Shown in pieces: positions 18,057 to 31,554 of a DNA stretch of 46,031 bases. Every line of letters begins with the position of its first letter. Positions within the stretch are counted from its first letter, which is position 1. The stretch lies in the UHGV virus genome UHGV-2109381, one strand, 5' to 3'. The notes beneath the pieces are model-generated. The model did no database searches and was not told the origin of the DNA. It saw only the letters and a list, made by a program, of their open reading frames with translations. A program made the position numbers and the translations under genes. This DNA comes from a virus.

Positions 18057-20591
18057 TTATCTCCTGCTCCGCCTAATCCATCCAGAGCCACGCTGTACGA
18101 TGTGATCGTTGCATGCATATCTGATTGCGTCAATGAAGTGGTTCCACGCATCCACAATATTTGTGAGCACGTTACCCGTCAGCTTGTCCACCTTGTAACT
18201 GTACATAGTGAACTCTTCCTGAGTCTGTGTGCAGCGGTCATGAATGATGATGCTGTCGCAACCCCTGAGCCAGGTTACACCATCCTCCACGCTCCCGGGC
18301 CACTTATTGCATGGATGGATATCAAATCCTGCGCGTTTGATGTGACTGATTGTTTCTGGCCGAGAGCAGTCCCCATACCATCTTGCCTTCCTGGAGAGTG
18401 GGAATGATTGCTCCATCGCTGTAGGTGTGTCGGTAATCTCAAGGCCTACACGGCCGTATTCGCGCGCGACGTAAAGGTTGCGGCGGTCATCAGGAAGTTT
18501 CTCAATGTAAACCTCAACCATCGCCGTTGCGTCCTGCGAGAATCCAAAGTCGATGCCAAAGTAAGGCCCATGCCATTCCGGCTTAACCTCGAAATCAGCA
18601 ACGCGCCACTTACCGCCAAATACCTGCTCATCATTACGCTTATTAAAGCGCCCACCCCACACCCATTGATAGCGGTCGAAGTCGGTCTCTTTCATGCGTT
18701 GCATTTGGCTTGGGAGCGGAGTATCCCAGAACCACGGATTGTCTGAGTAATTACACTCCATAATCAGGTTTTCATCATCCTCATAGATGCCGCCATTTTC
18801 GCGCAATTTATTATAAAAAGGCTCAACCCATATTTTCCACGTCGGGTCATGCTCTTTATTTGGGTTGAAGGTCACCCATATCTCTGACCCTTCAGCGCGG
18901 ACTGTTGGGGTGAGGATTTCCCAGCTTGTCTGGCTGACGTTTTCCGCCTCCTCGACCCAAGCTACTGTAATGCCAGCGAAGCCTTTTACGGTCGTCTGGT
19001 TGCGATACAGGCCTTTAAAGCGGAACTTTGCTTTCGTTACCTTGTGTGTTATTTCGTTGTTGATGACGCGAAACTCTTTTGTCTCGCCCTTCCTGTCAAT
19101 CTCGTCTTTCAGCTCCTGATATGAACTATCCTCAATAGACTGCTGAATCTCACGAAAACAAGCTATCCTGTCAGGCTTAAAGCGTGCACGCTCCGTAAGT
19201 ATTGTTGTTACTGTCCTTGTTTTTCCGCTGTTGTGTGTAACCGTGCCATCAGCAAGCAGGAAAAGATGATCGCCATCAATAGTGAACCCAGCGTATTCAC
19301 CATGCCCGACATAAGACAATGACACCTCAGTCATCTTTCCACGGGTTGACTTGGTTTTCTCTGCTATCTTCCTTTTTACTCGGCATGGGATTGTATGAAG
19401 GTCACCACTAACGAACACCTCCCATACGTCCTTTTCGTATATTCTTTTCTCACCTTTATATTCAAAGGTGACATCAGTCTTTTTGATTATGCTTGACTTG
19501 AAGCCAAGAGATCTTGCCACATCCATCAAAGAGAAGGCCATTTCTTTATTTATTGATGTGAAAGAATAGCTTTTCTTTTTCTGGTCATAATGCGAATCAG
19601 TATCCAATAGCCCAGCCAGAATCTGAAGTCTTACCTCTCTGCTGTTTTTGATATAGCAGTCAGGTATGTGTTTATTATTAATCACCCCAAGCTGCTGCAT
19701 TTTAGTTAGTAACGGGTTGGTGTTCTTCCCCATGCCAGCAGCTCGACCATTAGTTATCGCATAGACAGGGCATCTATCATCGTCGCGAACCTTTACCTGC
19801 ATCCCGTATTTGCTTGCCACGTTGTGAATGTAGTCAACTATCTCTGGATCAGGCGTGCATACTTCAACACCACGAGATGAACCATCACCTAACCATAAAC
19901 CAAGAAAGTACGGGTCAACTGGGACGCTTTGGTCATTAAAATCCCATCCTGTTCGCCACCCTTTAAAGACATGGCGGAACTTTTTGGAAGTTGCGCGCGA
20001 CAAATATTCTGAAACACCAATATTCAGTATTTCAGGTTCATTCGGGTAATAACGATAAATTCTTTTACCATCCGGTGTTTTTGTCTCGTCACTGATAGCA
20101 GATGGAATCTTTCGTAATGACAGTATGTGACTTGAGTTGACAGTGTAGTCATCAGCATATTTTTGATGAACCGTATACATGTCATCAAACCCCCGACAGA
20201 TGTTTAAAACATTTCGTGGTTTACTGTCTGGACCCATAACCTTATCGCCAACAACGATATCCTCTACGCGTTTTAGGCTACCATCAAACATCCTCACCAT
20301 CGTGCCGATGGCTAAGCATCCGCGCCCGCCAAACACAATCTTATTACGCTTGGGGTAAAGTAGCTTTTCCAGCTTTTCTGGTATCAGGTGATCAACGCCA
20401 ATATCAGAGTCGCTAACGTCATCAACTCCGCTTTGCGTCATTTTTAGTTTGCGAACAATCTGCTTATCTGTATTAACAACACCGAACACCGCAGATTCAG
20501 GCGCATCAATCACGCCATCGCCAATAATCTCTTCGAGTTTTTCAATTGCTGGTGCTGAGAGTCTTTTGCGTGCCATATATAGATTCCTCAT
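18057..20591 (-). CDS. Terminase large subunit (TerL) interrupted by an in-frame intein.
   Basis: The exteins give Walker A FGGRG|SGKTRTV. The C-terminal region (VTFNPN, WVEEAENV...) is nuclease-like. The 844-aa ORF minus a 363-aa intein leaves a ~481-aa terminase. Confidence 0.8.
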   Translation of the reverse strand: MRNLYMARKRLSAPAIEKLEEIIGDGVIDAPESAVFGVVNTDKQIVRKLKMTQSGVDDVSDSDIGVDHLIPEKLEKLLYPKRNKIVFGGRGCLAIGTMVRMFDGSLKRVEDIVVGDKVMGPDSKPRNVLNICRGFDDMYTVHQKYADDYTVNSSHILSLRKIPSAISDETKTPDGKRIYRYYPNEPEILNIGVSEYLSRATSKKFRHVFKGWRTGWDFNDQSVPVDPYFLGLWLGDGSSRGVEVCTPDPEIVDYIHNVASKYGMQVKVRDDDRCPVYAITNGRAAGMGKNTNPLLTKMQQLGVINNKHIPDCYIKNSREVRLQILAGLLDTDSHYDQKKKSYSFTSINKEMAFSLMDVARSLGFKSSIIKKTDVTFEYKGEKRIYEKDVWEVFVSGDLHTIPCRVKRKIAEKTKSTRGKMTEVSLSYVGHGEYAGFTIDGDHLFLLADGTVTHNSGKTRTVTTILTERARFKPDRIACFREIQQSIEDSSYQELKDEIDRKGETKEFRVINNEITHKVTKAKFRFKGLYRNQTTVKGFAGITVAWVEEAENVSQTSWEILTPTVRAEGSEIWVTFNPNKEHDPTWKIWVEPFYNKLRENGGIYEDDENLIMECNYSDNPWFWDTPLPSQMQRMKETDFDRYQWVWGGRFNKRNDEQVFGGKWRVADFEVKPEWHGPYFGIDFGFSQDATAMVEVYIEKLPDDRRNLYVAREYGRVGLEITDTPTAMEQSFPLSRKARWYGDCSRPETISHIKRAGFDIHPCNKWPGSVEDGVTWLRGCDSIIIHDRCTQTQEEFTMYSYKVDKLTGNVLTNIVDAWNHFIDAIRYACNDHIVQRGSGWIRRSRR
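19230..20318 (-). mobile_element. Intein (Hint domain plus LAGLIDADG homing endonuclease) inserted in the TerL P-loop.
   Basis: It starts with Cys (GGRG/CLAIGTMV) and ends ...LLADGTVTHN/SGKT. Two LAGLIDADG motifs are present: FLGLWLGDGSS and LAGLLDTDSH. Confidence 0.8.
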
Positions 20592-21233: not shown

Positions 21234-21785
21234 TTATACACCATGATTATCGTGAAACCCATACTCTTCTTCTGCTTTCTTTCTTGCCAGCTCCGCATCA
21301 AGTATGTCGTTGAAATATCCAAGATGTATGAACTTCTTGTTAACCCTTATTTTTGCTTGCCACTTTCGCTTATCCTTCCTCCAGTGTACCCCAGTTACTC
21401 CACTACTATTGCTAGAGTACTTAGATTTGTTTTTTAGATTCCCTCCCCTATTTGTCAGCCTGAGATTTTCAATCCTGTTATCACCAGGGTTATGGTTTAT
21501 ATGGTCAATCTCCAATCCACCAGTTATAGGGCCATTATGCATTTCCCATATGATTCTGTGCGCAAAGTATTTTCGTCCAGAGCACCAAATAGATGTATAT
21601 CCTTTTGACCCTGAGTGGCCTGCAACCTTACCTTTTCTTGCCTTGCGGCCATCATCCTCGCGCCATATCAGGTTTCCGTTGTTGTATTCAAACAGCTCAT
21701 TCCAGTCTATTCTTTTCATCACACTTACCGCTCCTGCACCACAAATCATTGCGTGGGGATTTAACATGAACCACCTCAATCGCAT
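21234..21785 (-). CDS. HNH-AP2 homing endonuclease, copy 3 (intact HNH and AP2 domains).
   Basis: HNH region YFAHRIIWEMHNGPITGGLEIDHINHNPGDNRIENLR. AP2 region SGVTGVHWRKDKRKWQAKIRVNKKFIHLGYF. Possible starts are 21785, 21767 (GAGGTGG SD) or 21719. Confidence 0.8.
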   Translation of the reverse strand: MRLRWFMLNPHAMICGAGAVSVMKRIDWNELFEYNNGNLIWREDDGRKARKGKVAGHSGSKGYTSIWCSGRKYFAHRIIWEMHNGPITGGLEIDHINHNPGDNRIENLRLTNRGGNLKNKSKYSSNSSGVTGVHWRKDKRKWQAKIRVNKKFIHLGYFNDILDAELARKKAEEEYGFHDNHGV

Positions 21786-21876
21786 CAGGAAAGGCTTTGG
21801 CGATTGCTGCTATGAAGTGGTCGACTCCTTCAATCTGCGCAGCTTGCCATACCTCCCGCTTTGATTTTTGCGGCAT
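21697..21876 (-). CDS. Upstream mini-ORF of HNH copy 3 (59 aa). It ends ...WCRSGKCDEKNRLE-UGA, overlapping the HNH frame.
   Basis: Its ATG overlaps the stop of the 52-aa ORF (TAATG). The C-terminal motif C.SG.C..KNR is shared with the mini-ORFs 27918..28070 and 30952..31077. Confidence 0.35.
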   Translation of the reverse strand: MPQKSKREVWQAAQIEGVDHFIAAIAKAFPDAIEVVHVKSPRNDLWCRSGKCDEKNRLE

Positions 21877-22034
21877 TACTGATACCTCGTAGTTGAGTAC
21901 ATATACCGAAGCATACTGTTATGCTCAACCACCATCATCATACTGCCAACCTGAATGACGGCGTGATGCTTTCCGGTCTCCTCATACAGAAAGTCAGCCT
22001 CTTCGCATGCTGCCTGAATGTCGCTCCACAACAT
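21876..22034 (-). CDS. Hypothetical 52-aa protein.
   Basis: GAGGTG SD. Not in the ORF track. Confidence 0.3.
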   Translation of the reverse strand: MLWSDIQAACEEADFLYEETGKHHAVIQVGSMMMVVEHNSMLRYMYSTTRYQ

Positions 22035-22037
22035 GAT

Positions 22038-22130
22038 TCACCTCACGATAAAGTAGACGGCCAGTGCAACAACAATCCAGAATGCAATGCAGGCTACAGC
22101 AATAAGCCTGCGGATGATGTAGGGTTTCAT
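22038..22130 (-). CDS. 30-aa hydrophobic peptide.
   Basis: GGAGGA SD. Its ATGA overlaps 22127..22606. TM core IAVACIAFWIVVALAVYFIV. Confidence 0.3.
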   Translation of the reverse strand: MKPYIIRRLIAVACIAFWIVVALAVYFIVR

Positions 22131-22606
22131 GGTTTATCCTCCTGCGGGGCGGCTGTGATTAAGTTATGCAGAACCGAGTAGGCATCATCACCATGCGCTT
22201 CAGTGTAGTCGCTCATGTGCGTATTGATATGGCGAATCCAACCTTGTGCATCACCATAATTGCGCTCGCGATAGTCATCCAGCATGCACTGAACCAGGCG
22301 AAGGGCTTCAATCAAGTTTGTGTCGATAGCATCAAGCACTACCGGTGCTGGCTGTGCGTGATAGAGGGTCGTATCCTCGGTACCAGCAGAGACAGAGATT
22401 ACCTTTCTCATCCTAGCCGTATCGGTTGAACAGAACAGTTTTCGTTCCTTGTAATCTGGCTCGCTGTCCATTGCGGCCAGCGCTATACGAGCCAGTTCAC
22501 GCAAATTCTCACTATGCGGAGATGTCATTTCTCGGCTGATAATGTGCTGCGCAGTATCAATCAGAATCTGCCGCTGCTGCTCTCTGGTTATGGTTGATTT
22601 GGTCAT
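22127..22606 (-). CDS. Hypothetical protein.
   Basis: 159 aa ORF. Confidence 0.45.
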   Translation of the reverse strand: MTKSTITREQQRQILIDTAQHIISREMTSPHSENLRELARIALAAMDSEPDYKERKLFCSTDTARMRKVISVSAGTEDTTLYHAQPAPVVLDAIDTNLIEALRLVQCMLDDYRERNYGDAQGWIRHINTHMSDYTEAHGDDAYSVLHNLITAAPQEDKP

Positions 22607-22610
22607 TGGG

Positions 22611-22802
22611 CTATTCCTCCACGCTTATATCTACGGAAACTTTCATCTTCCCTGCGGTGACCTCAAAGCCAGTAACATCCGCATTAAGCATGTATTCCGA
22701 GATAACCAGGGCGAGTAGTTTCAATTTGGCGTCAGTGTTGTTGCCATTCAGTTCTTCCAGGAGCTCGATAACCGGCTCCATGTGTTCACCCATTTTCATC
22801 AC
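22611..22802 (-). CDS. Hypothetical protein.
   Basis: 63 aa ORF, coupled. Confidence 0.4.
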
Positions 22803-23314
22803 TCAGCCTCCACCTTGATGCCAGCGGAGGTGATCGCAGCATCGACCTCGTCGGCGTAGTAGTACGTTAATCCGCTCGATGATTTAGCCAACTTGAATGG
22901 CTCTGGCAGCTTCACGGTGCGGGACTCCAGCTCGGCGATGCGCTTCTCTGCAATTTCCAGTTCCAACTTTAGGTGTTGGTTTTCATCTCTCGCCGCTTCC
23001 CTAAATTCGATCGCGGTTTTGCTGTAGGTCTCAAGCTCGCCGTTCCGCTGCTGCGCCTTCTCCAGCGCCTCTACCAGAGCGAGGATGTTTTCCGGCTTAC
23101 ATTCACGGAAGAACAGCTCATCAGCCTCGCCGTTCGGCCCAATGAATCCGTACTCCATGTTTTTATGGTCGGCCTGCAATACCAGAGAGCCGTCATTACC
23201 GAAGCACCGGTACTTAATACTCCCACTCCCATCAATACGGTCGCCAATACGACCAGGAGTCGCTTTCTCTGCCGCCGCTTTCAGGCGCTGCGACAGTTCG
23301 GTGATATCAGTCAT
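22799..23314 (-). CDS. Ea22-like (ead/Ea22) family protein.
   Basis: 171 aa. It carries a [15 protein letters not shown] motif and a central coiled coil, as in lambdoid Ea22-like proteins. Confidence 0.45.
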
Positions 23315-23595
23315 GCTGCTCGCTCCTGCTTTGTCATCAGCGCATCACGGACGCTCTGGCGGTAGTAGTGGTGAAAGGCAAAAGTCAGGCCGAGCTTTGT
23401 TGGCCGCTCCTGTTTCCCCAGCAGTTTGAGGCGAGTGCAAATGGTCGTCGCCGTCCAGCCAGAGTGATAACCGGCAGCTCGCTTCATAACGGTTTCCGCC
23501 AGAATGGTGCGAAAGTCGTCTCGCCCGAAATTAGTGTTTTCGAATGCGGCGCTGATTACTTCGTCAGTGAGATGTGCATCGATAGCGTGGCTCAT
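23311..23595 (-). CDS. Hypothetical protein.
   Basis: The ATG at 23595 overlaps the upstream stop (ATGA). The track ORF extends to 23706. Confidence 0.4.
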   Translation of the reverse strand: MSHAIDAHLTDEVISAAFENTNFGRDDFRTILAETVMKRAAGYHSGWTATTICTRLKLLGKQERPTKLGLTFAFHHYYRQSVRDALMTKQERAA

Positions 23596-24002
23596 TTGTC
23601 GGCCCCCTCGCGCAGCTGAGCGGCGAAGTCTTCGGCGTGTTCTCCAGCAAGCCACCAGTTGTTTCTGATATCCGAAGAAATGGCCCGCATAGATTCTTCT
23701 CGGCATTTTTCAACAAACATCTCCACCCCATCAGCCTTAATCCCGGCTACGATGCGATCGGTGACGGGGGTTTCGATATTGTTGAGAGCGTCAGTAAAAC
23801 CGCCCCTTTCCATGCCAAGTTCGGCTTCATAGTCGGCATCAAATGCAGCGTTTTTGCAGAACTTCTTCAGCGCCACATTCTCCGCAGCCAGTTGCACGCA
23901 CAGCTTTGCAGCATTGAGGTATTTTTCCTCTTTGATTGAGAGTTCACCACCGCTCTCAAGATTTTTAATAATTTCCTGAACTTCGTTGATTTCGATATCC
24001 AT
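23592..24002 (-). CDS. Hypothetical protein.
   Basis: 136 aa ORF. Confidence 0.45.
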   Translation of the reverse strand: MDIEINEVQEIIKNLESGGELSIKEEKYLNAAKLCVQLAAENVALKKFCKNAAFDADYEAELGMERGGFTDALNNIETPVTDRIVAGIKADGVEMFVEKCREESMRAISSDIRNNWWLAGEHAEDFAAQLREGADK

Positions 24003-24008
24003 AAATCC

Positions 24009-24269
24009 TCACTTAACTGCCTGCAAGCGCTCAAGCTCACGCATCAGTGCAGATACACGGCGTTGCCGAAAAGTCTCTGCATGCTCTTTTGCCTGCTGCT
24101 CATCAAGCCAGTATTCACCACGTTTAAAGTAAACATCGCCAACCACAGCAACCTTCCCATCAGCAAACAACTGTGCGCTTTCGTACTTCTGAATGCCACG
24201 GGTTAGTGCGTACTTCGTGACCCATATTGTTTCAGCGCTTGCCGCGTTAGCGATAACCAGTAAAACCAC
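24009..24269 (-). CDS. Small protein with a signal-peptide-like N-terminus. Start codon uncertain (GTG).
   Basis: The N-terminus reads (K)LLAVVLLVIANAASA|ETIW, consistent with a Sec signal. Confidence 0.35.
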   Translation of the reverse strand: MVLLVIANAASAETIWVTKYALTRGIQKYESAQLFADGKVAVVGDVYFKRGEYWLDEQQAKEHAETFRQRRVSALMRELERLQAVK

Positions 24270-24302
24270 TGCCAGTAATTTATTAATCGTTGCTAAACCG
24301 GT

Positions 24303-24488
24303 TTAGTTTCCACCAGATGACACGATAACCTGCTCAAGCACTCTCTGCTTGCCTTCGCCACTAAAAACTCGACAGACGCGCTTACCGTTGCTGTATGAAT
24401 GCATTGCCTGCGCCATCATAAAGTCTTGCGCTTTCACTGCGCCCATTTCTGGTTCCAGTTGAGTGCGCGTGTAGATTGCTTTGGTCAT
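24303..24488 (-). CDS. First early-left gene, a 61-aa small protein and possible small regulator.
   Basis: ATG with an AGGTGA SD, about 25 nt downstream of the leftward early promoter. Confidence 0.45.
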   Translation of the reverse strand: MTKAIYTRTQLEPEMGAVKAQDFMMAQAMHSYSNGKRVCRVFSGEGKQRVLEQVIVSSGGN

Positions 24489-24519
24489 TCTTCATCACCT
24501 ATTTGTTGTTGGTGTGGTA

Positions 24520-24548
24520 ACTATACGATGGCGCTCAATCTACGTCAA
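24520..24548 (-). promoter_or_regulatory. Leftward early promoter, a near-identical copy of the consensus promoter at 2833.
   Basis: The minus strand reads TTGACGTAGATTGAgcgccatcgTATAGT, with a 17-nt spacer. Confidence 0.65.
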
Positions 24549-24600
24549 TATGATGGTGAAAATAAATCAGATTGGGGTAAATTTTACCCCTGTGGGTAAG

Positions 24601-24870
24601 GTGTTGGGGCATAGGGCTTCCCCACGCACAAGCCTTGTCACTAAAGGGATTTAACATTTTTGGGGCAGTGGGGCAATTTTGACACCCATCCCCTTGTATA
24701 TATAAAAATGCCGCAAGTTTGTTAATTTATTGTTAAAATAATACCTATAATATGAATAATAATATTACCCATTACCCCAACTACTACTATTATTATTATA
24801 TTACATATACTTAGAGTATAAAAGTTTGGGGCAACTAGGGTGCCCCAAGGCTGCCCCATATGCCCCACAA
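24601..24870. promoter_or_regulatory. Divergent early control region. TGGGGCA heptamer repeats and a 21-bp palindrome flank a very AT-rich core that carries rightward promoter candidates.
   Basis: TGGGGCA at 24605, 24661, 24669 and 24827. The complement TGCCCCA at 24841, 24852 and 24861. Palindrome TGGGGCAactagggTGCCCCA at 24827-24847. Promoter candidates TTGACA (24679) with TATAAA (24701), and a perfect TATAAT at 24746. Confidence 0.5.
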
Positions 24871-24943
24871 TGAATGTTTGTGATTGCATGATTCAATGTT
24901 TATGATATGATTCAACATAGATTTGTTTGATGAGGGGGTTGAT

Positions 24944-25162
24944 GTGTATCTTGATAAGTACGGAAAGAAGAATGCGGCGCTGTCTTCGCTTGCAGCTATC
25001 GCTGTTGGGGAGGTGGTAACTTATGATGCAAGAAAGTTTGGCGGCGTTGTGAGTTTAAGGAACGCCATCAATTACTTCATGCGCAGGAATCCTGATTTAA
25101 AATTTTCCACTAAAGCCGGATATCCTGACAAAGAGACAATTTACGTGAAAAGGATTTCATGA
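24944..25162 (+). CDS. First early-right gene, hypothetical. The start is uncertain: GTG at 24944 or TTG at 24923.
   Basis: GAGGGGG SD 5 nt before the GTG. The track start is a TTG. Confidence 0.4.
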   Translation: MYLDKYGKKNAALSSLAAIAVGEVVTYDARKFGGVVSLRNAINYFMRRNPDLKFSTKAGYPDKETIYVKRIS

Positions 25163-26715
25163 TGATTACAGCACAGGAAATCTTCAATCAGGCAAGAGAA
25201 GCCCACACCTCTGCGGCGCGCGTAGCCATTCATCATGGCATGACACCAAGCCACAACATGTGGCCGGAAATCAAGGAAGGGCAGGAGAAGGATGTAACAT
25301 ACTCGGAGATAGAGCTTACCAGCGACAACAGGAAAGACCTGATAACGCGCTACTCAGTTGCGGCGGCTAGGGCTGTGCAATTCCCAGTTAGCACGTCATT
25401 CATGCATTTGCTTGGCTGCGTAGCCAGTGCCATGACGCGAAATTTTAGCGTTGAATACTACGGTTCTGAATTGCCTGTTTCATTGTACGTAGTGACGTCG
25501 CAGCCGCCATCAGCTGGCAAGACAGCCATCAACTCAATGCACATGAACCCGATAAAAATTGAGTATGACAACCTGTCAAAAAAGATGGAGAAGGAAATTG
25601 TAAAGATAAACATTCGCATTGAAGACCTGATGAAGGCTTACAAGGAGGCAACTAACCAGAACGCGAAGGCCATCATTGGAGATGATATCGCGAAAGAGAA
25701 GGAAAAACTGGAAAGTCTTTACACCATCACCTACCCGTTAACCGATGCAACACCAGAAGCGGTGCAGCACCAGGCAATTCATGAGGGTGGTTTTTTCAAC
25801 CTGATAAGTGATGAGGCAAGCGTTTTAAATACCTGCCTTGGACTTTCGTATGGCAAGGATGGAGGAAAGTCTAACGCCGAAGTCATCCTTAAAGGCTGGG
25901 ATGGCGGGTTTGTTGGTTCAGCTCGCGTTGGTCGTGGTGTTTCATCTGGCTATGTGCTTGGTAACATCAGCGTCATTGCACAGGACGAAAGTATTGATGC
26001 CATTCTTTCCGCTGGCGACAGGGGTAATGGATTGTCAGAGCGATTCCTGATGCTTCGTGAGCAGTCGATGTTGGGTTATCGTGAGCATTGGGATGTTGAA
26101 AATGATTGCCCGGTAAGTAAGCCAATGCCTAAAGAACTAAAGGCAGAATATGCCAGATTTGTGCATAACCTTGTGGCTTCTGAGAAGGTTGTTTTCTCCC
26201 TCGCTAAAGAATCGCAGCGTATGATTGGGCTCTTACGAAACCAGTGGGAAAAGAATTTCCTGCCAGGTGGTAAATGGGATCACGTTTTGCTTCGTGGCGC
26301 CATGGGTAAGGCTGACAAACAGATAATCAGGCTTTCGGCAATATTCCATGCCGCTGAAAACTGGTGCGATGGCGGTCGTCGCTCAAAAATTATTGGTGAG
26401 GAGCATATAAGCCGTGCCATAAGCGTTTATGATGCACTAACAAAAACATTTACCGATGCCGTTGAGTCAAATGGATACGCTGGCGAGAAATCAGAAATTG
26501 ATGTCGTTGCTGAAAAATTGCGCACGGCTGCGCAAAAAGGAAAGACAAATGTCACAGTGAAATGGTTGTATGATTCACTAAAAAACGTTAGACCATTCAA
26601 AGGCATACCGCATATTTATGACAGACTCAAGTCAAGCGTTTTGCCTTCTCTTGAAGAGGATGGATATTGCGTATTCCTCAATAATACTGTTTACCTGAAT
26701 CCGAGGCTTAAATGA
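25159..26715 (+). CDS. P-loop ATPase, putative replicative helicase/primase-associated NTPase.
   Basis: Walker A VVTSQPPSAGKTAINS. 518 aa. AAGGA SD. It precedes the primase-like gene. Confidence 0.45.
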   Translation: MMITAQEIFNQAREAHTSAARVAIHHGMTPSHNMWPEIKEGQEKDVTYSEIELTSDNRKDLITRYSVAAARAVQFPVSTSFMHLLGCVASAMTRNFSVEYYGSELPVSLYVVTSQPPSAGKTAINSMHMNPIKIEYDNLSKKMEKEIVKINIRIEDLMKAYKEATNQNAKAIIGDDIAKEKEKLESLYTITYPLTDATPEAVQHQAIHEGGFFNLISDEASVLNTCLGLSYGKDGGKSNAEVILKGWDGGFVGSARVGRGVSSGYVLGNISVIAQDESIDAILSAGDRGNGLSERFLMLREQSMLGYREHWDVENDCPVSKPMPKELKAEYARFVHNLVASEKVVFSLAKESQRMIGLLRNQWEKNFLPGGKWDHVLLRGAMGKADKQIIRLSAIFHAAENWCDGGRRSKIIGEEHISRAISVYDALTKTFTDAVESNGYAGEKSEIDVVAEKLRTAAQKGKTNVTVKWLYDSLKNVRPFKGIPHIYDRLKSSVLPSLEEDGYCVFLNNTVYLNPRLK

Positions 26716-26903
26716 TGAAGATAAAAGGTTACTTAGTAAGGTCAGAAGGCGCATATCATTTTAGGCCTTATGGTTGGAGTGTTTGGTTTTTCTGGAGTAA
26801 ATTGCACGGCTGCTGGTTAATATCAAACTATCATGTTATTGCCAGTTACTGGCATCGACATCTTCATGCAAGTGTTGATATAAATAGACTGATGATACGA
26901 TAA
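26712..26903 (+). CDS. Hypothetical Trp-rich small protein.
   Basis: 63 aa. ATGA overlap with the upstream gene. Weak call. Confidence 0.25.
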   Translation: MMKIKGYLVRSEGAYHFRPYGWSVWFFWSKLHGCWLISNYHVIASYWHRHLHASVDINRLMIR

Positions 26904-26936
26904 CAAAAACCCTCCATCAGGAGGGTTTGTTTTTTA
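26904..26936. terminator. Bidirectional terminator between the plus operon and the convergent primase gene.
   Basis: aaaaaccctccatcaggagggtttgtttttta. Confidence 0.7.
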
Positions 26937-27843
26937 GTGCTTCAAATAGCTCTTCTGGTTTATACAGCCTTTTTCTGATGGCGCCGCTGTAACGGATATC
27001 CTGGCCATCATCAGTAATCAGTATCGGAAGACCTGCATTCTCGGCGGCGCATACCTCATCGAAATTATTATTAATGATGCAGCGTAGTTTGGATCGCTGC
27101 TCATCGCTCACATTGCGTACAACTTCCCACATATTCTCAGGCGACCAGCAACACCAGACATGTGCGCCAGTAAGCCGGTGTGCTCGCCAGGCATCGAAGT
27201 AATCCGCAACCAGGTATGTCCATTCCGTCTTATAGCCGATGGGTGTCACTGCGCCTCGCGTAAGTCTTCCGCGAGTGTACTCATGGCTGAAACCCGCGCG
27301 AAATGACACGCCTTCATCGTCAGCAATGAATGCCACATTGCATGGCGTCATGGTTCCAGCCATATAGAGCGGTATCGCCACCAGTTCACCAGTTTTACCG
27401 GTTATGGTGTCACCTCCTGCTTTTTCCATTATGGCCGCCACTTCTGCCTCTGTCAGGTAGTCAGAAGCACGGTTGACCTTCGGAAGTTGCTTTCTAATCG
27501 CCTCAAGTTTTTCGCGTGGGTGCATGTTTAGAAATCCGGCCAGTGCCTCCATTGACTCTGGAAACGTCATTCCTGACAGCTTCATTAGCCAGGTGATGCC
27601 GCTGCCGTTTCCGCACTGGTTGCAGATGGCGCCGCCGTCGCCTTTGTAGTCTAAGTGGTCATCGAATCTAAACCTGTCCTTGCCAGCGCAACTTGGGCAT
27701 GGCTGATGTTTACCATTGAAAATTCTCACGTCGACATTTACTATCGACATGATGGCAGCCTGCCAGTTGCCTACCATTAAAGGCTCTATATCCTTCCAGT
27801 CGTATCGCATAATTTCTTCCAGTTGACTATGATGTAGATTCAT
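26917..27843 (-). CDS. DNA primase-like protein carrying a primase-helicase-type zinc ribbon.
   Basis: CPSCAGKDRFRFDDHLDYKGDGGAICNQCG is a Prim-Zn-ribbon-like motif. 308 aa. It is encoded opposite to the surrounding operon. Confidence 0.45.
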   Translation of the reverse strand: MNLHHSQLEEIMRYDWKDIEPLMVGNWQAAIMSIVNVDVRIFNGKHQPCPSCAGKDRFRFDDHLDYKGDGGAICNQCGNGSGITWLMKLSGMTFPESMEALAGFLNMHPREKLEAIRKQLPKVNRASDYLTEAEVAAIMEKAGGDTITGKTGELVAIPLYMAGTMTPCNVAFIADDEGVSFRAGFSHEYTRGRLTRGAVTPIGYKTEWTYLVADYFDAWRAHRLTGAHVWCCWSPENMWEVVRNVSDEQRSKLRCIINNNFDEVCAAENAGLPILITDDGQDIRYSGAIRKRLYKPEELFEALKNKPS

Positions 27844-27851
27844 TGTAATTT
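27823..27851 (+). promoter_or_regulatory. Promoter with the GTAGATT motif, upstream of the HNH copy-1 locus. It overlaps the primase 5' end.
   Basis: TTGACTatgatGTAGATTcattgTAATTT, with a 17-nt spacer. Confidence 0.45.
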
Positions 27852-27917
27852 ACTCACATGAAACGCGCAAGCGTTCTTGACATGAAACGCAACTGAGTTT
27901 AATATTGAGGTTAACAA

Positions 27918-28070
27918 ATGGCTATCACATTGAAGAAGTGCAAACACTGCGGGAGAGAATTTCATGGAACATCAAGAGCTGAGTTCTGCTGCTCGGGGTG
28001 CAGACTTAAAAACTTCAGGGAAGAAAGAAAAGCTAAAGGTTTCACAGGAAAGTCTGATGGAGGTTCTTGA
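27918..28070 (+). CDS. Cys-rich mini-ORF (CxxC...CxxGC zinc-ribbon-like, 50 aa) upstream of and overlapping HNH copy 1.
   Basis: MAITLKKCKHCGREFHG..FCCSGCRLKNFRE. GAGGTTAAC SD. It ends GGU UCU UGA, and the +1 frame at that point reads LDYSPDTG... of the HNH ORF. Confidence 0.4.
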   Translation: MAITLKKCKHCGREFHGTSRAEFCCSGCRLKNFREERKAKGFTGKSDGGS

Positions 28071-28530
28071 TTACAGTCCTGACACCGGGGTGTTTAACTG
28101 GATTAATGGCAACTTAAGAAATGTCAAGCCAGGAGATATTGCTGGATATAAAAATTCACGTGGGTACATAAAAATAAGGGTTTGGTCAAGGCTGTTTTTC
28201 GCGCATAGATTGGCGTGGATTTATGTTTATGGAGAAGATATCGATGGGCATGAAATAGACCATATAAATGGTGATAAGTCAGACAATAGAATTTGCAACC
28301 TTAGAATTTCCAGTCATCAACAAAACATGTTCAACATGAAAAAGAAATCAACAAATAAATCTGGTGTAAAAGGCGTGCATTTCGACAAAAGATGCAATAA
28401 ATGGAGAGCCCAGACATCAATAAACAAAAAGAGGGTTCATATTGGATTGTTTAATACCATAGAATCGGCAGAAAATGCTATTCGTGAATTCATGGTAGCC
28501 AACCATAAAGAGTTTATTAATTTAGGGTGA
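27964..28530 (+). CDS. HNH-AP2 homing endonuclease, copy 1 (intact).
   Basis: HNH region FFAHRLAWIYVYGEDIDGHEIDHINGDKSDNRICNLR. AP2 region SGVKGVHFDKRCNKWRAQTSINKKRVHIGLF. Possible starts are 27964 (GGGAGAG SD) or 28057 (AGGAAAG SD). Confidence 0.8.
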   Translation: MEHQELSSAARGADLKTSGKKEKLKVSQESLMEVLDYSPDTGVFNWINGNLRNVKPGDIAGYKNSRGYIKIRVWSRLFFAHRLAWIYVYGEDIDGHEIDHINGDKSDNRICNLRISSHQQNMFNMKKKSTNKSGVKGVHFDKRCNKWRAQTSINKKRVHIGLFNTIESAENAIREFMVANHKEFINLG

Positions 28531-28533
28531 ATT

Positions 28534-30447
28534 ATGCACAAGATAGATAAAATGATTGCAGAACTTGATATAGATAAACTGAAGCAATCAATAAAACCAG
28601 GACTTATCGAGCCATATGATTATCAGTGGCTGGTATACGCAAAGTGCGCAGAGGTTATTCGTAATTTTGGCAAAGACCCCAAGCCTAGCTACGTAACAGC
28701 GTCAGTTTCATCAGGTAAGACGGTAATGATTTCCATGCTGTGCAGTCGATTCCAGGATATGGGGTGGGAAGGTCTGGTAATAGCTAGACAGTCTGAGATT
28801 ATCGACCAGGATGCAAGTGAGCTTTGGAATTTTGGAGTTAAGAACTCACTTTATAGTGCATCGCTAGGCAGAAAGAGCACTGCTTACCCAATAATCTGCG
28901 CCACAGAGGGAACAATTATAAATGCTCTTTTTGACAAGAAAGATGAATCTGGTGAGGTTATTAAAAAATCAGACCTTTCAGATTACACGCCTAGATTCTG
29001 CCTGTGCGATGAGGGACACCAGGTTCCGTGGCAGGACGTCGTAAGTGACAACCCAACAACTCAGTATGGAGTAATACTTACTGAGCTTAACAGGCGCTGC
29101 AAAGCAAAGTATGGACACGACATGATCACCATCGCTTTCACCGGAAGCCCTTTCCGTGGCACTGAGTCAATGAAGGGTGCCTACTGGAAGCATGAAATAA
29201 TAAACATTGACACAAAGTACATGGTAGATCGCGGATTCGTTGTGCCAACAATCTTTGGTCTTCATGATGTAGATGATTTACAGTATGACCTTTCTGATTT
29301 TCACGGCTCAGATGTTGACGGAACTCAAGACTTTACCGCTGAGCAACTCAAGCAGATGCAGAAAGAAATATTAGAACAGGGTACTCTCACGCAAAAAATA
29401 ATGATGAAGGTCATGGAGCTTACGAAAGACCGCAATGGGGTATTGATTACATGTGCAGGCAAAAAGCACTGTTTAGAAGCTGCAAAATATTTACCAGAGG
29501 GGAGTTATGCGATAGTAACTGAAGATATGGGCATGAAAGCTCGCCGGAAGGCTCTAAAAGATGCCTATACCGGAAAAATAAAATACACATTCCAAATTGC
29601 GGCGTTAACAACAGGTGTAAACATACCTTTGTGGGATGTAAGTGTGATATTGCGAAAAATAATGTCACTTACCCTTCTCGTCCAGCTTCTTGGTCGCGGG
29701 ATGCGCTTGCTGAAGAAAGAGCAAATTGATGCCGGGTATCATAAAGAAGACCATCTGGTTCTGGATTTCTCAGGCACGATGTTTGAGCTTGGTCAGCTGT
29801 ATGAAGACCCAATTCTGGAAGAAGCCGAAGCGCAACGCTCAAAACGCAGCGGTGAACAGGTTCCGTGTCCTAAGTGCGGAACAATGAACAGCCCATATGC
29901 ACGGCGCTGCATCGGTAAGGATGCAACATCGCCAGATGGTCGTTGCGAAGAGTTTTTCAGCTTCATTCGCTGTGGTTTCGACAAGCACGGCATCCGTATT
30001 TTTGATGATGGCTGTGGAACAAAAAACGACCCAACAGCTCGTTATTGCCGTCAATGCGATCACGTTTTGCGCGACCCTAATGCAGCGCTGAATGAACGGG
30101 CATACACTGATAAAGAATGGACTGATGTAAAGGATTTCAAGATTGAGCTAACGAAAGATGAGAAGGGTGTTGTTTATCGTTATTTCATCACGAAAGAAAA
30201 CGGCAAAGATGGCTGGGCCAACGAGGTATTCTATCCATTCGGAAGGCAGGAGAAGTACCTGAAAAATCAGTTTAAGATTAAAGGATTACTAAACCATGTG
30301 TCAGACAGGAATCTGATTGATAACCTCATGAATTGCCACAGCGCAAAAGCATTCATGGCGTTCACTGGCCTTATCCGCGCGCCTAAACGCATCACGCATC
30401 GTTTTAACGATAAAGGCCGAGACATAATCCACAGAAAAGAATTTTAA
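28534..30447 (+). CDS. Superfamily-2 DNA helicase with C-terminal zinc-ribbon insertions.
   Basis: Walker A SVSSGKTVM. Motif II CDEGHQ. Motif VI QLLGRGMR. Four CxxC pairs: CPKCG..RRCIG, RCEEF..RCGF, CGTKN..CRQCD. Confidence 0.8.
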   Translation: MHKIDKMIAELDIDKLKQSIKPGLIEPYDYQWLVYAKCAEVIRNFGKDPKPSYVTASVSSGKTVMISMLCSRFQDMGWEGLVIARQSEIIDQDASELWNFGVKNSLYSASLGRKSTAYPIICATEGTIINALFDKKDESGEVIKKSDLSDYTPRFCLCDEGHQVPWQDVVSDNPTTQYGVILTELNRRCKAKYGHDMITIAFTGSPFRGTESMKGAYWKHEIINIDTKYMVDRGFVVPTIFGLHDVDDLQYDLSDFHGSDVDGTQDFTAEQLKQMQKEILEQGTLTQKIMMKVMELTKDRNGVLITCAGKKHCLEAAKYLPEGSYAIVTEDMGMKARRKALKDAYTGKIKYTFQIAALTTGVNIPLWDVSVILRKIMSLTLLVQLLGRGMRLLKKEQIDAGYHKEDHLVLDFSGTMFELGQLYEDPILEEAEAQRSKRSGEQVPCPKCGTMNSPYARRCIGKDATSPDGRCEEFFSFIRCGFDKHGIRIFDDGCGTKNDPTARYCRQCDHVLRDPNAALNERAYTDKEWTDVKDFKIELTKDEKGVVYRYFITKENGKDGWANEVFYPFGRQEKYLKNQFKIKGLLNHVSDRNLIDNLMNCHSAKAFMAFTGLIRAPKRITHRFNDKGRDIIHRKEF

Positions 30448-30457
30448 GGAGAAAAAA

Positions 30458-30883
30458 TTGAAGCAGCTTGATAGTGGACTATGGGTATTTGATAGCGGTT
30501 ATCGCGGGGAGTGTCCAAGGGAGGAAACTGACCAGATGGCCTATGGTCTGTGGATGCAATACCGTTTTCCTGATGCTCTATGGTTTCATGTTCCTAACGA
30601 GACTGGAACAAAGAGTGGGCCGCAATTCGTCGAAAAACGCCGCAAAATGGGCGTCAGGAGCGGAGTAAGCGACAATGTGATACTAACTCACGGCATTAAT
30701 CATAAATGCGGCCTGATTGAACTGAAGAGGCGTGATAAGACAAAATCAAAAGTATCGTCATCGCAGATTGAGGTTCTGGAGTGCGCCATTGCAGAAGGTC
30801 ACTTTAGCGCCATTGCTTATGGCCTTGAGGAGATAAAAAGAGCGACTCTTTTCTACTTTGGCTTGCCTTTGGATGTGGATTGA
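30458..30883 (+). CDS. VRR-NUC domain nuclease.
   Basis: The motif order ...GVSDNVILTHGINHKCGLIELKRRDKTKSKVSSSQIEVLE fits VRR-NUC (D..E.K). TTG start with an AAGGAG SD. An ATG alternative lies 84 nt downstream. Confidence 0.55.
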   Translation: MKQLDSGLWVFDSGYRGECPREETDQMAYGLWMQYRFPDALWFHVPNETGTKSGPQFVEKRRKMGVRSGVSDNVILTHGINHKCGLIELKRRDKTKSKVSSSQIEVLECAIAEGHFSAIAYGLEEIKRATLFYFGLPLDVD

Positions 30884-30951
30884 TGCATTGTTAGTAACAG
30901 GTAAAAGTTACTTGCAATGTAACGCTGAATGATTACAATAGAGGGTAAGAA

Positions 30952-31554
30952 ATGGCTATCACCGTTAAGAAATGCGAGGTTTGCGGAAATGAGTTCATCG
31001 GAACTGCAAAAGCAAAATTCTGCTCTGGGAGATGTAGAGTCAAAAACCACAGGAAAAACAAAAAGAATACCTCTTGATGTCGTTTTGCATAACTTAACTT
31101 ACAACCATGAAACAGGACTTTTCTTCAGAAATAAGACTGGTGGAGGAGTCAAGAAAGGAAGTGTAGCTGGAAGGAAAAAGCATAACGGATATATAGAAAT
31201 AAGCATAAACAATACGAGATATTATGCGCATCGTCTTGCATGGCTCATGCATTACGGTTTCTGGCCTGAACACCAGATCGATCATATCAATGGTGTTCGT
31301 GATGACAACCGGATTAGTAACTTAAGAATTGCAACAAACATGCAGAACCAGTACAACGCGAAAAGCCAAAAAACAATACATCTGGAGTTAAAGGCGTTTA
31401 CTGGCATAAGCAATGCAAGAAATGGCAGGCATACTGCGATGTAAGCGGTAGAAGATACAGCATTGGGTTGTTCCATGATATTGAGAAAGCAAAGGTTGCT
31501 GTTATGAATTTTAGAGAAAAAATGCACAAAAATTTTTGCAACCACGGAGAGTGA
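30952..31554 (+). pseudogene. HNH-AP2 homing endonuclease, copy 2, split over three frames. A Cys-rich mini-ORF spans 30952..31077. The HNH body (track ORF 30929..31444) is in its +1 frame. The AP2 domain sits in a further frame to 31554 after an A6 run at 31368-31373.
   Basis: Mini-ORF MAITVKKCEVCGNEF..FCSGRCRVKNHRK ends UCU UGA. HNH region YYAHRLAWLMHYGFWPEHQIDHINGVRDDNRISNLR. The AP2 region SGVKGVYWHKQCKKWQAYCDVSGRRYSIGLF is readable only in a different frame. Confidence 0.6.

Follow-up and report, generated by a model that had tools for sequence, protein, structure and literature searches.

Homing endonuclease genes overlapping, in the +1 frame, a zinc-ribbon mini-gene in a siphophage genome: probable separate translation from an embedded start

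Three open reading frames (ORFs) of the virus genome UHGV-2109381 encode HNH_3 homing endonucleases (copies 1, 2 and 3), and each is overlapped at its 5' end by a short ORF in another frame. How is a nuclease translated whose beginning lies inside another reading frame? The whole stretch of 46,031 nucleotides (nt) analysed here, called the window, is the genome of a siphophage from the Jersey-like or Klebsiella group. A first-pass annotation had proposed that all three loci share one architecture, a Cys-rich mini-ORF ending in UGA at the point where a +1 shift continues the endonuclease frame. Its coordinates for the six ORFs were correct. With the upstream ORF as reference, the nuclease frame is +1 at all three loci, every such ORF ends in TGA, and GAGG motifs resembling a Shine-Dalgarno (SD) sequence are present 5' of all three. 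Our reading of copies 1 and 2 is that two overlapping genes are probably translated separately, the nuclease being initiated at a start codon embedded in a zinc-ribbon mini-gene. Copy 3 was found to be an ordinary gene outside this set.

Copies 1 and 2 have homologous mini-ORFs, 56% identical, which begin MAIT(L/V)KKC..C, as had been noticed before. C8, C11, C24 and C28 are invariant and form a CxxC and a CxxxC pair with conserved spacing. The predicted product is a zinc-ribbon protein of about 35 structured residues followed by a Lys/Arg tail. The segment C.SG.C..KN.R, which had been ascribed to all three mini-ORFs, occurs exactly in copy 3 only; copy 1 reads CCSGCRLKNFR and copy 2 CSGRCRVKNHR. 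A profile search of 1.84 billion representative proteins detected 947 relatives of the zinc ribbon, which take the form of stand-alone proteins of 40-55 amino acids (aa) starting MAI..K.C, of tandem repeats, or of in-frame N-terminal fusions to nucleases (to T5orf172 in P0107 and to a GIY-YIG-like nuclease in P0147). With the mini-ORF profile, a word-indexed search of 5.8 billion proteins found only 3 clusters, all of small stand-alone proteins. PHROG profiles of some HNH endonucleases hold the zinc-ribbon motif internally, and the PHROG matches of the copy-2 mini-ORF are zinc-ribbon segments of this kind within HNH endonuclease families. In Pfam no curated family matched above its threshold (DUF2116, 17 bits with a cut-off of 26.8; zf-C2HC_2, 18 bits with a cut-off of 27), and the copy-1 mini-ORF gave weak treble-clef and zinc-finger matches only. 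A search of solved structures with the zinc-ribbon profile returned marginal matches only (L24e in PDB, E 0.11). Tandem arrays were also seen, in which 3-13 copies of the unit make up proteins of 190-630 aa of unknown function (P0004-P0008, P0016, P0029, P0061, P0066).

Gene callers hardly ever call the zinc-ribbon ORF and call the long nuclease-frame ORF instead. In GenBank the zinc-ribbon ORF is annotated as a separate coding sequence in phage LPST10. It also stands alone beside non-nuclease genes in loci L036 (a Rha-like gene), L040, L042 and L043, and those genes have their own starts.

Substitutions among close relatives were used to determine which frame is constrained. In core codons 2-33, three groups of close relatives gave 12 synonymous to 3 nonsynonymous changes in the zinc-ribbon frame and 1 to 14 in the +1 frame; therefore the zinc-ribbon frame is under selection there. 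Between the copy-2 mini-ORF and that of phage Bas77, substitutions are mainly synonymous or conservative in the mini-ORF frame. In the nuclease body of type B the +1 frame gave 12 synonymous to 3 nonsynonymous changes. In the linker the zinc-ribbon frame looks unconstrained (3:16); compared with the +1 frame (6:13), the per-site counts within types are not decisive there. Codon-position diversity over all 50-codon modules gave information on the core, whereas the linker was too noisy for it. Copies 1 and 2 thus have mini-ORFs that are predicted to encode a real zinc ribbon under purifying selection.

The same arrangement was found at many other loci. Loci were collected by tblastn against phages, from 30 IMG/VR loci, and by pattern scans with a hand-made degenerate DNA pattern for the zinc ribbon (72 metagenome, 27 viral and 9 genome loci). 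The module recurs in about eight diverged lineages, designated by their N-termini MAITL, MAITV, MAITE, MI[AST]EV, MITYKK, MSIEKRE, MPISF and MPVNQ. At dozens of phage and metagenome loci the order is a TTGACA-type promoter, an SD, the zinc-ribbon ORF and then a nuclease in the +1 frame. The downstream ORF is +1 in every nuclease-linked locus and -1 in none, and as a rule no stop interrupts it as far back as the first codons of the mini-ORF. The nuclease bodies are HNH_3 or HNH_3-AP2 (L051, L063 and others), zinc-finger HNH with the EVDHIVP motif (L029, L038, L046, L103, L128, L133), a GIY-YIG/NUMOD3 enzyme (L077) or T5orf172 (L072). The promoter architecture of copy 1 likewise stands directly 5' of zinc-ribbon ORFs at unrelated loci. 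Since copies 1 and 2 carry homologous 5' modules, their frame break was inherited and did not arise in independent events. The frame break of copies 1 and 2 is a conserved design and not random decay. The first-pass annotation had argued against decay for all three copies; the argument holds for the two whose break recurs across the lineages, and copy 3 falls outside.

Two candidates were rejected during the collection of these loci. Some tblastn matches covering query residues 21-204 resembled in-frame fusions and proved to be the same split arrangement, with the alignment run through the wrong frame. Erwinia phage Prophecy was considered as an example of two separated genes, and the upstream ORF there, of 36 aa, does not encode a zinc ribbon. 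Six IMG/VR loci (L011-L015, L017) carry a chimeric double-nuclease ORF in the +1 frame, 365-373 aa long, in which an HNH_3 N-terminal part without AP2 is fused in frame to a complete zinc-finger HNH.

An alignment of 19 typical members of the family (160-175 aa) gave the N-terminus M-(L/I)-(T/S)-Q-x-x-L-K-E-x-L-x-Y-D-P-x-T-G. The nuclease frame of copy 1 reads K-V-S-Q-E-S-L-M-E-V-L-D-Y-S-P-D-T-G, and its stretch VSQESLMEVLDY matches the family motif from at least 11 codons upstream of the UGA onward. The native Met of the nuclease is missing in most lineages, so nuclease translation must come from upstream. In most lineages the first 50 nt of the mini-ORF contain an SD-like motif followed by a +1-frame ATG or GTG (Table 1). 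The copy-1 nuclease ORF opens at such an ATG, 46 nt after that of the mini-gene and preceded by GGGAGAG (a database protein of 188 aa, P0153, is identical to this nuclease); in copy 2 the embedded ATG is 37 nt after the mini-gene ATG and is preceded by GAGGT. The ATG at 30929, from which the long ORF of copy 2 had been counted, falls within the spacer and -10 region of the promoter. Two further loci fit separate initiation. L038 retains its native ATG (GGK-M-CSKC), while its core is free of ATG, and L117 has a +1 stop upstream and a start, GAGGA-N5-TTG, exactly at the position of the family Met.

Moderate evidence suggests that the +1 frame is read through the zinc-ribbon core. In nuclease-linked modules, +1 stops arose from core codon pairs at 0 of 30 sites, and 12.3 were expected from the codon usage of the nuclease bodies. 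In the ten remaining modules 3 of 10 sites had them, each in a stand-alone ORF. In nuclease-linked modules Val30 is always encoded by GTT or GTC and Leu30 always by CTT or CTC.

These observations can be accommodated in the following scheme. The nuclease ORF would have lost its native start codon, and it reads back, in the +1 frame and without a stop, into the zinc-ribbon gene. The module has three parts: a strong promoter of the sigma-70 type, in which a GTAAC/GTTAC palindrome is often present, an SD and the gene for the zinc ribbon. Nuclease translation most likely starts at the SD-preceded embedded ATG or GTG, which would be 27964 for copy 1 and 30989 for copy 2. A second possible start of copy 1 is the Met at 28057, close to the mini-gene stop. 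Two separate proteins would be made from the overlapping frames. Heavy translation of the mini-gene probably holds initiation of the nuclease low, and the zinc-ribbon protein may be a DNA-binding regulator or a helper of the cassette. The promoters of the cassettes contain operator-like repeats. Direct repeats of CATGAAACGC flank the copy-1 promoter (27857-66 and 27881-90), and an inverted repeat, AGTAAC at 30893-98 and GTTACT at 30907-12, lies beside the -35 element of copy 2. Palindromes of the form TGTAAC-N8-GTTACA were also seen over the -10 element of module promoters (L046, L092, L038, L103, L032). It is speculation that the zinc-ribbon protein might bind such promoter repeats and palindromes, including those at 27857-27890 and 30893-30912.

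Several points weigh against separate translation from an embedded start. The embedded starts are predictions from sequence and differ in position among lineages, and some of them are by-products of conserved residues (His/Tyr-Gly giving xAT-G, Cys-Gly/Glu giving TGT-G). L103, L128 and L046 have GTG or TTG candidates only, and L024 lost the ATG. The stop-avoidance test has few independent sites, which share ancestry, and transitions are favoured. In-frame fusions of the ribbon to T5orf172 and GIY-YIG-like nucleases show that the ribbon can form the N-terminal domain of a nuclease, as a recoding model would predict. A Lys run of A5-A8 is located exactly at the switch of the selected frame in nearly all modules. 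Finally, downstream genes with their own start after a +1 stop are still +1 in 6 of 6 cases (L036, L040, L042, L043, L072, L117), a bias that none of the models considered explains.

The Lys run raises the possibility of recoding. Within the Lys-rich A-run (about codons 31-38), either tRNA-Lys would slip by +1 or a slipping RNA polymerase would drop one A, and the outcome would be, besides the free zinc-ribbon peptide, a fusion of zinc ribbon, linker and nuclease. Selection passes from one frame to the other at codons 33-36, a stretch that lacks a start codon, and the runs follow the conserved ..C-R-x-x-x-[HFCY]-R. The lack of a native nuclease start in most lineages, the +1 frame of all nuclease-linked loci with none at -1, and the loci with GTG or TTG candidates only are likewise in keeping with a slip. 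So are three MI[AST]EV members without an ATG before the first zinc finger of the nuclease, and the fusions P0107 and P0147, whose linker has the length that a slip would give. However, no conserved shifty heptamer, stop or SD stimulator stands at a fixed distance; a search of the switch region for a conserved shifty motif found generic Lys-codon A-runs only. Copy 1 has A4/A5 runs only, and stand-alone zinc-ribbon genes are also Lys-rich in the tail, so that an A-run is expected anyway. Avoidance of +1 stops extends to the stretch before the run, where a shift further downstream would not call for it, and in L117 and L072 the downstream gene has its own start after a +1 stop. No fused HNH_3-AP2 relative was found in the databases searched: with the joined product as query against the 5.8 billion proteins, a single ORF with zinc ribbon and HNH_3-AP2 was absent among the best 120 of 1729 matches. 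We consider such recoding unlikely. In its full form, HNH_3-AP2, zinc-finger HNH and GIY-YIG/NUMOD3 nucleases would all depend on +1 recoding in the A-run after a shared zinc ribbon, the nuclease being made only as a rare fusion and the abundant free peptide regulating the cassette. To this we give the same small chance; if true, phage selfish elements would use a new and widespread class of programmed +1 frameshifting.

Ribosomes that terminate on the mini-ORF might instead restart nearby, at ATG 28057 in copy 1 and at ATG 21719 in copy 3. The ATG of copy 1 stands 11 nt before the UGA, as had been reported, with AGGA upstream; that of copy 3 (21719-21717) is 20 nt before it and not 18. A Met near the junction is also present in types B, L007, L008, L016/19 and L018, and short +1 overlaps with real starts occur in copy 3 and L117. 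Reinitiation, which the first-pass annotation had offered as its second option, may operate in copies 1 and 3. It does not extend to copy 2, the A2 type (L003, L011-17), L010, L029 and others, which have no start near the stop. In copy 1 a start at MEVLDY loses 8 residues of the conserved N-terminal motif, and the junction Met fills a hydrophobic helix position and may be incidental. As the general route to the nuclease we regard reinitiation as quite doubtful.

Homing endonuclease genes often decay or are frameshifted (PMC10448857), and the frame-broken nucleases could be decaying pseudogenes, with the zinc-ribbon gene alone functional. Copy 2 does carry a second frame break, which had been overlooked. 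Relative to Bas77 it has 1 nt fewer near 31359-31366 (within 31350-31385, AACGC-GAAAAGCC vs AACGCTAAAAAACC in Bas77), therefore its HNH ORF ends early and its AP2 domain is out of frame. The missing base is either real decay or a sequencing error in a homopolymer. Additional frameshifts in the HNH body were seen in L062 and L105, close relatives of copies 1 and 2, so individual cassettes are still decaying. These cases and the lost embedded ATG of L024 are consistent with loss of function. Against this, many diverged lineages maintain an intact +1 ORF of 190-300 aa in which the catalytic motifs are conserved, and the nuclease-body substitutions of type B are mainly synonymous. Decay of the nucleases as a whole is very unlikely.

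The shift at the UGA itself, the model originally proposed, fared worst. It rested on the heptamer TCTTGAT (28065-28071 and 31072-31078), which is indeed common to copies 1 and 2, on its resemblance to the prfB site, and on GGAGG just upstream in copy 1. The stop position is also kept in three copy-2-type variants (CTT GAT, CGT GAT, CGT AAT). The homology in the HNH frame, however, begins at least 11 codons before the UGA, and a shift there would therefore delete the N-terminal helix and put KSDGGS in its place. The joined products were expected to align colinearly with single-ORF homologs; none of the best 120 matches was a fused homolog, and the +1 homology precedes the stop by the same distance. 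Among relatives the stop is TGA, TAG or TAA and varies in position; with respect to the conserved Tyr it is 12 codons earlier in L010 and 17 later in L063. The heptamer is accounted for by the motif, in which CTTGA represents the Leu-Asp/Glu codons; Bas77 has CGT GAT there and L024 CGT AAT, with TAA as its stop. The prfB mechanism needs a P-site codon that can re-pair (CUU U), and tRNA-Ser on UCU cannot re-pair on CUU. Copies 1 and 2 both have UCU UGA at the junction; copy 3, which is not in the set, has GAA UGA, and only L018 has CUU UAG C. As for an SD-like stimulator, which in prfB-type sites stands about 3 nt before the shift codon, the GGAGG of copy 1 is 1 nt upstream of UCU and copy 2 has none. 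A prfB-like programmed +1 frameshift at the mini-ORF stop (UCU UGA U) is extremely improbable.

Copy 3 had been counted as a third paralog with the same architecture. Its upstream ORF is not a Cys-rich paralog of the others. It has no first CxxC, and it matches DUF7334 over its full length (positions 1-55 of 58, 101 bits with a cut-off of 27). A degraded zinc-ribbon module was considered and ruled out by this full-length match and by the junction DNA, which had no significant similarity to zinc-ribbon modules (p 0.08-0.6 against shuffles). The DUF7334 gene has homologs in 179 phage records, in most cases with no nuclease. In the family alignment the copy-3 nuclease keeps the typical native start Met (MKRIDWNELFEY), and its gene overlaps the DUF7334 gene by 23 nt. 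Copy 3 is an ordinary gene of the HNH_3(-AP2-like) type with a native start that overlaps an unrelated DUF7334 gene.

The end of this DUF7334 gene differs among phages. In 40 rows sampled, the three homologs accompanied by HNH (H91, H98, H112) match through residues 53-59 and the others stop at 47-53. Among these rows, the last ~10 codons (…GKCDEKNRLE; 21697-21730, minus strand) occur only in HNH-carrying phages, and the homolog in Klebsiella phage DP01 has a different C-terminus. The co-occurrence of this end with a downstream HNH indicates that insertion of the nuclease rewrote the 3' end of its neighbour.

Phage DP01 is the closest relative of the window in the phage collection (91% identity across 69% of a 12-kb query). 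Its primase-helicase spacer is just 74 nt, and the window fills the same gap with copy 1 (27850-28530). In DP01 the gene before exonuclease VIII abuts exonuclease VIII, and the corresponding gap in the window holds copy 2 (30890-31554). The insertion sites were determined from annotation spacing; an alignment of the boundaries was poor and was dropped. Because the gaps are empty in DP01, copies 1 and 2 are insertions as expected of homing endonuclease genes, and both cassettes show a presence/absence polymorphism at their insertion sites, by which homing endonucleases are recognised. All three nucleases have the HNH_3 catalytic domain in Pfam (Table 1). The AP2 domain of copy 1 is in the same frame and below threshold (30.1 bits with a Pfam cut-off of 33.3), that of copy 2 is out of frame, and copy 3 is AP2-like by family alignment only. 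It is reasonably likely that copies 1 and 2 are mobile homing endonuclease cassettes with a common portable 5' module. The large subunit of terminase is 844 aa in the window and about 474 aa in DP01. The ORF in the window contains an intein and its DP01 homolog is shorter; the intein is therefore a fourth mobile element of the region.

Table 1. Features of the three nuclease loci and their surroundings, and putative embedded starts by lineage (positions in the window; "+37" and the like, nt from the mini-gene start).
Feature	Position	Strand	Basis or remark
Copy 1, sigma-70-like promoter: TTGACA, 17-nt spacer, TAATAT	27877..27905	+	promoter scan 10/12
Copy 1, zinc-ribbon mini-gene, 50 aa, CxxC-12-CxxxC and basic tail, own SD (GAGG)	27918..28070	+	ORF list
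Copy 1, HNH_3-AP2 homing endonuclease ORF, +1 frame	27964..28530	+	Pfam HNH_3 3.5e-17, AP2 6e-7
Copy 2, promoter-like site: TTGCAA, 16-nt spacer, TACAAT	30912..30939	+	promoter scan
Copy 2, zinc-ribbon mini-gene, 41 aa	30952..31077	+	ORF list; Pfam DUF2116 / treble clef 0.005
Copy 2, HNH_3 ORF, +1 frame, counted from embedded ATG	30989..31444	+	Pfam HNH_3 1.2e-18
Copy 2, AP2 domain remnant, displaced frame	31375..31554	+	Pfam AP2 1.3e-6
Copy 3, HNH_3(-AP2-like) homing endonuclease	21234..21719	-	Pfam HNH_3 1.7e-18
DUF7334 gene, ordinary conserved phage gene	21697..21876	-	Pfam DUF7334 2.6e-29; phrog_18384
Terminase large subunit ORF with intein (Hint, Hom_end, LAGLIDADG)	18057-20591	-	Pfam; 844 aa
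Embedded start, MAITV lineage: GAGGT-N9-ATG at +37	30989 (copy 2)		
Embedded start, MAITL lineage: GGGAGAG-N7-ATG at +46	27964 (copy 1)		
Embedded start, MAITE lineage: ATG at +46			
Embedded start, MI[AST]EV lineage: GAGGT-N6-GTG at +19			
Embedded start, MSIEKRE lineage: ATG at +25			SD-like motif in only 1/4 loci

The arrangement has consequences for annotation. The first 30-50 residues of the long ORFs called "HNH endonuclease" are a wrong-frame reading of the zinc-ribbon gene, which is almost never annotated, and recognising the cassette would correct many phage annotations. A portable 5' expression module common to unrelated homing endonucleases would also make the way in which selfish nucleases keep their own expression low testable by a few silent mutations.

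The cassettes resemble prfB, which encodes release factor 2 (RF2), in having a short upstream ORF that ends in UGA and a downstream product in the +1 frame, and copy 1 has GGAGG just upstream of the stop. They differ from it in that they have no CUU_U codon, the position and identity of the stop are not conserved, and the homology of the downstream frame begins well before the stop. The upstream ORF here is predicted to encode an independent folded zinc-ribbon domain, and elsewhere it is found as a gene on its own. Out-of-frame embedded or overlapping genes are well known in phages, as in lambda Rz/Rz1, the overlapping genes of phiX174 and the lysis gene of MS2. As in these, the second ORF has its start signals among the codons of the first gene and in the +1 frame, and one frame is constrained in each stretch. 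In contrast, the cassette joins a small gene of DNA-binding type to the 5' end of a selfish nuclease, and its 5' module is portable between nuclease families.

Phage homing endonucleases of the HNH-AP2 type have been described (Magnani et al. 2004, as cited in PMC10448857). All three copies are of this HNH_3 and AP2 type and occupy intergenic gaps in which a close relative has no insert. A typical member is one ORF with its own Met, whereas copies 1 and 2 are without it and extend into the zinc-ribbon gene. The ribbon MAI..KC..CG..F.GT.RA.[FY]CS..C is linked to homing-type nucleases in P0107, P0147, phrog_1271 and phrog_15471 as well; these have a single reading frame, and in the window ribbon and nuclease are in different frames. 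The CxxC...FCSxxC spacing and basic tail are those of the FCS/TRASH-like treble clefs (DUF2116, L24e), to which profile matches were weak; all matches to the ribbons of copies 1 and 2 are under curated thresholds. Full-text literature searches found no paper describing the arrangement, only general statements on frameshifted homing endonuclease genes. Its parts are familiar: the arrangement combines overlapping phage genes with modular homing endonucleases.

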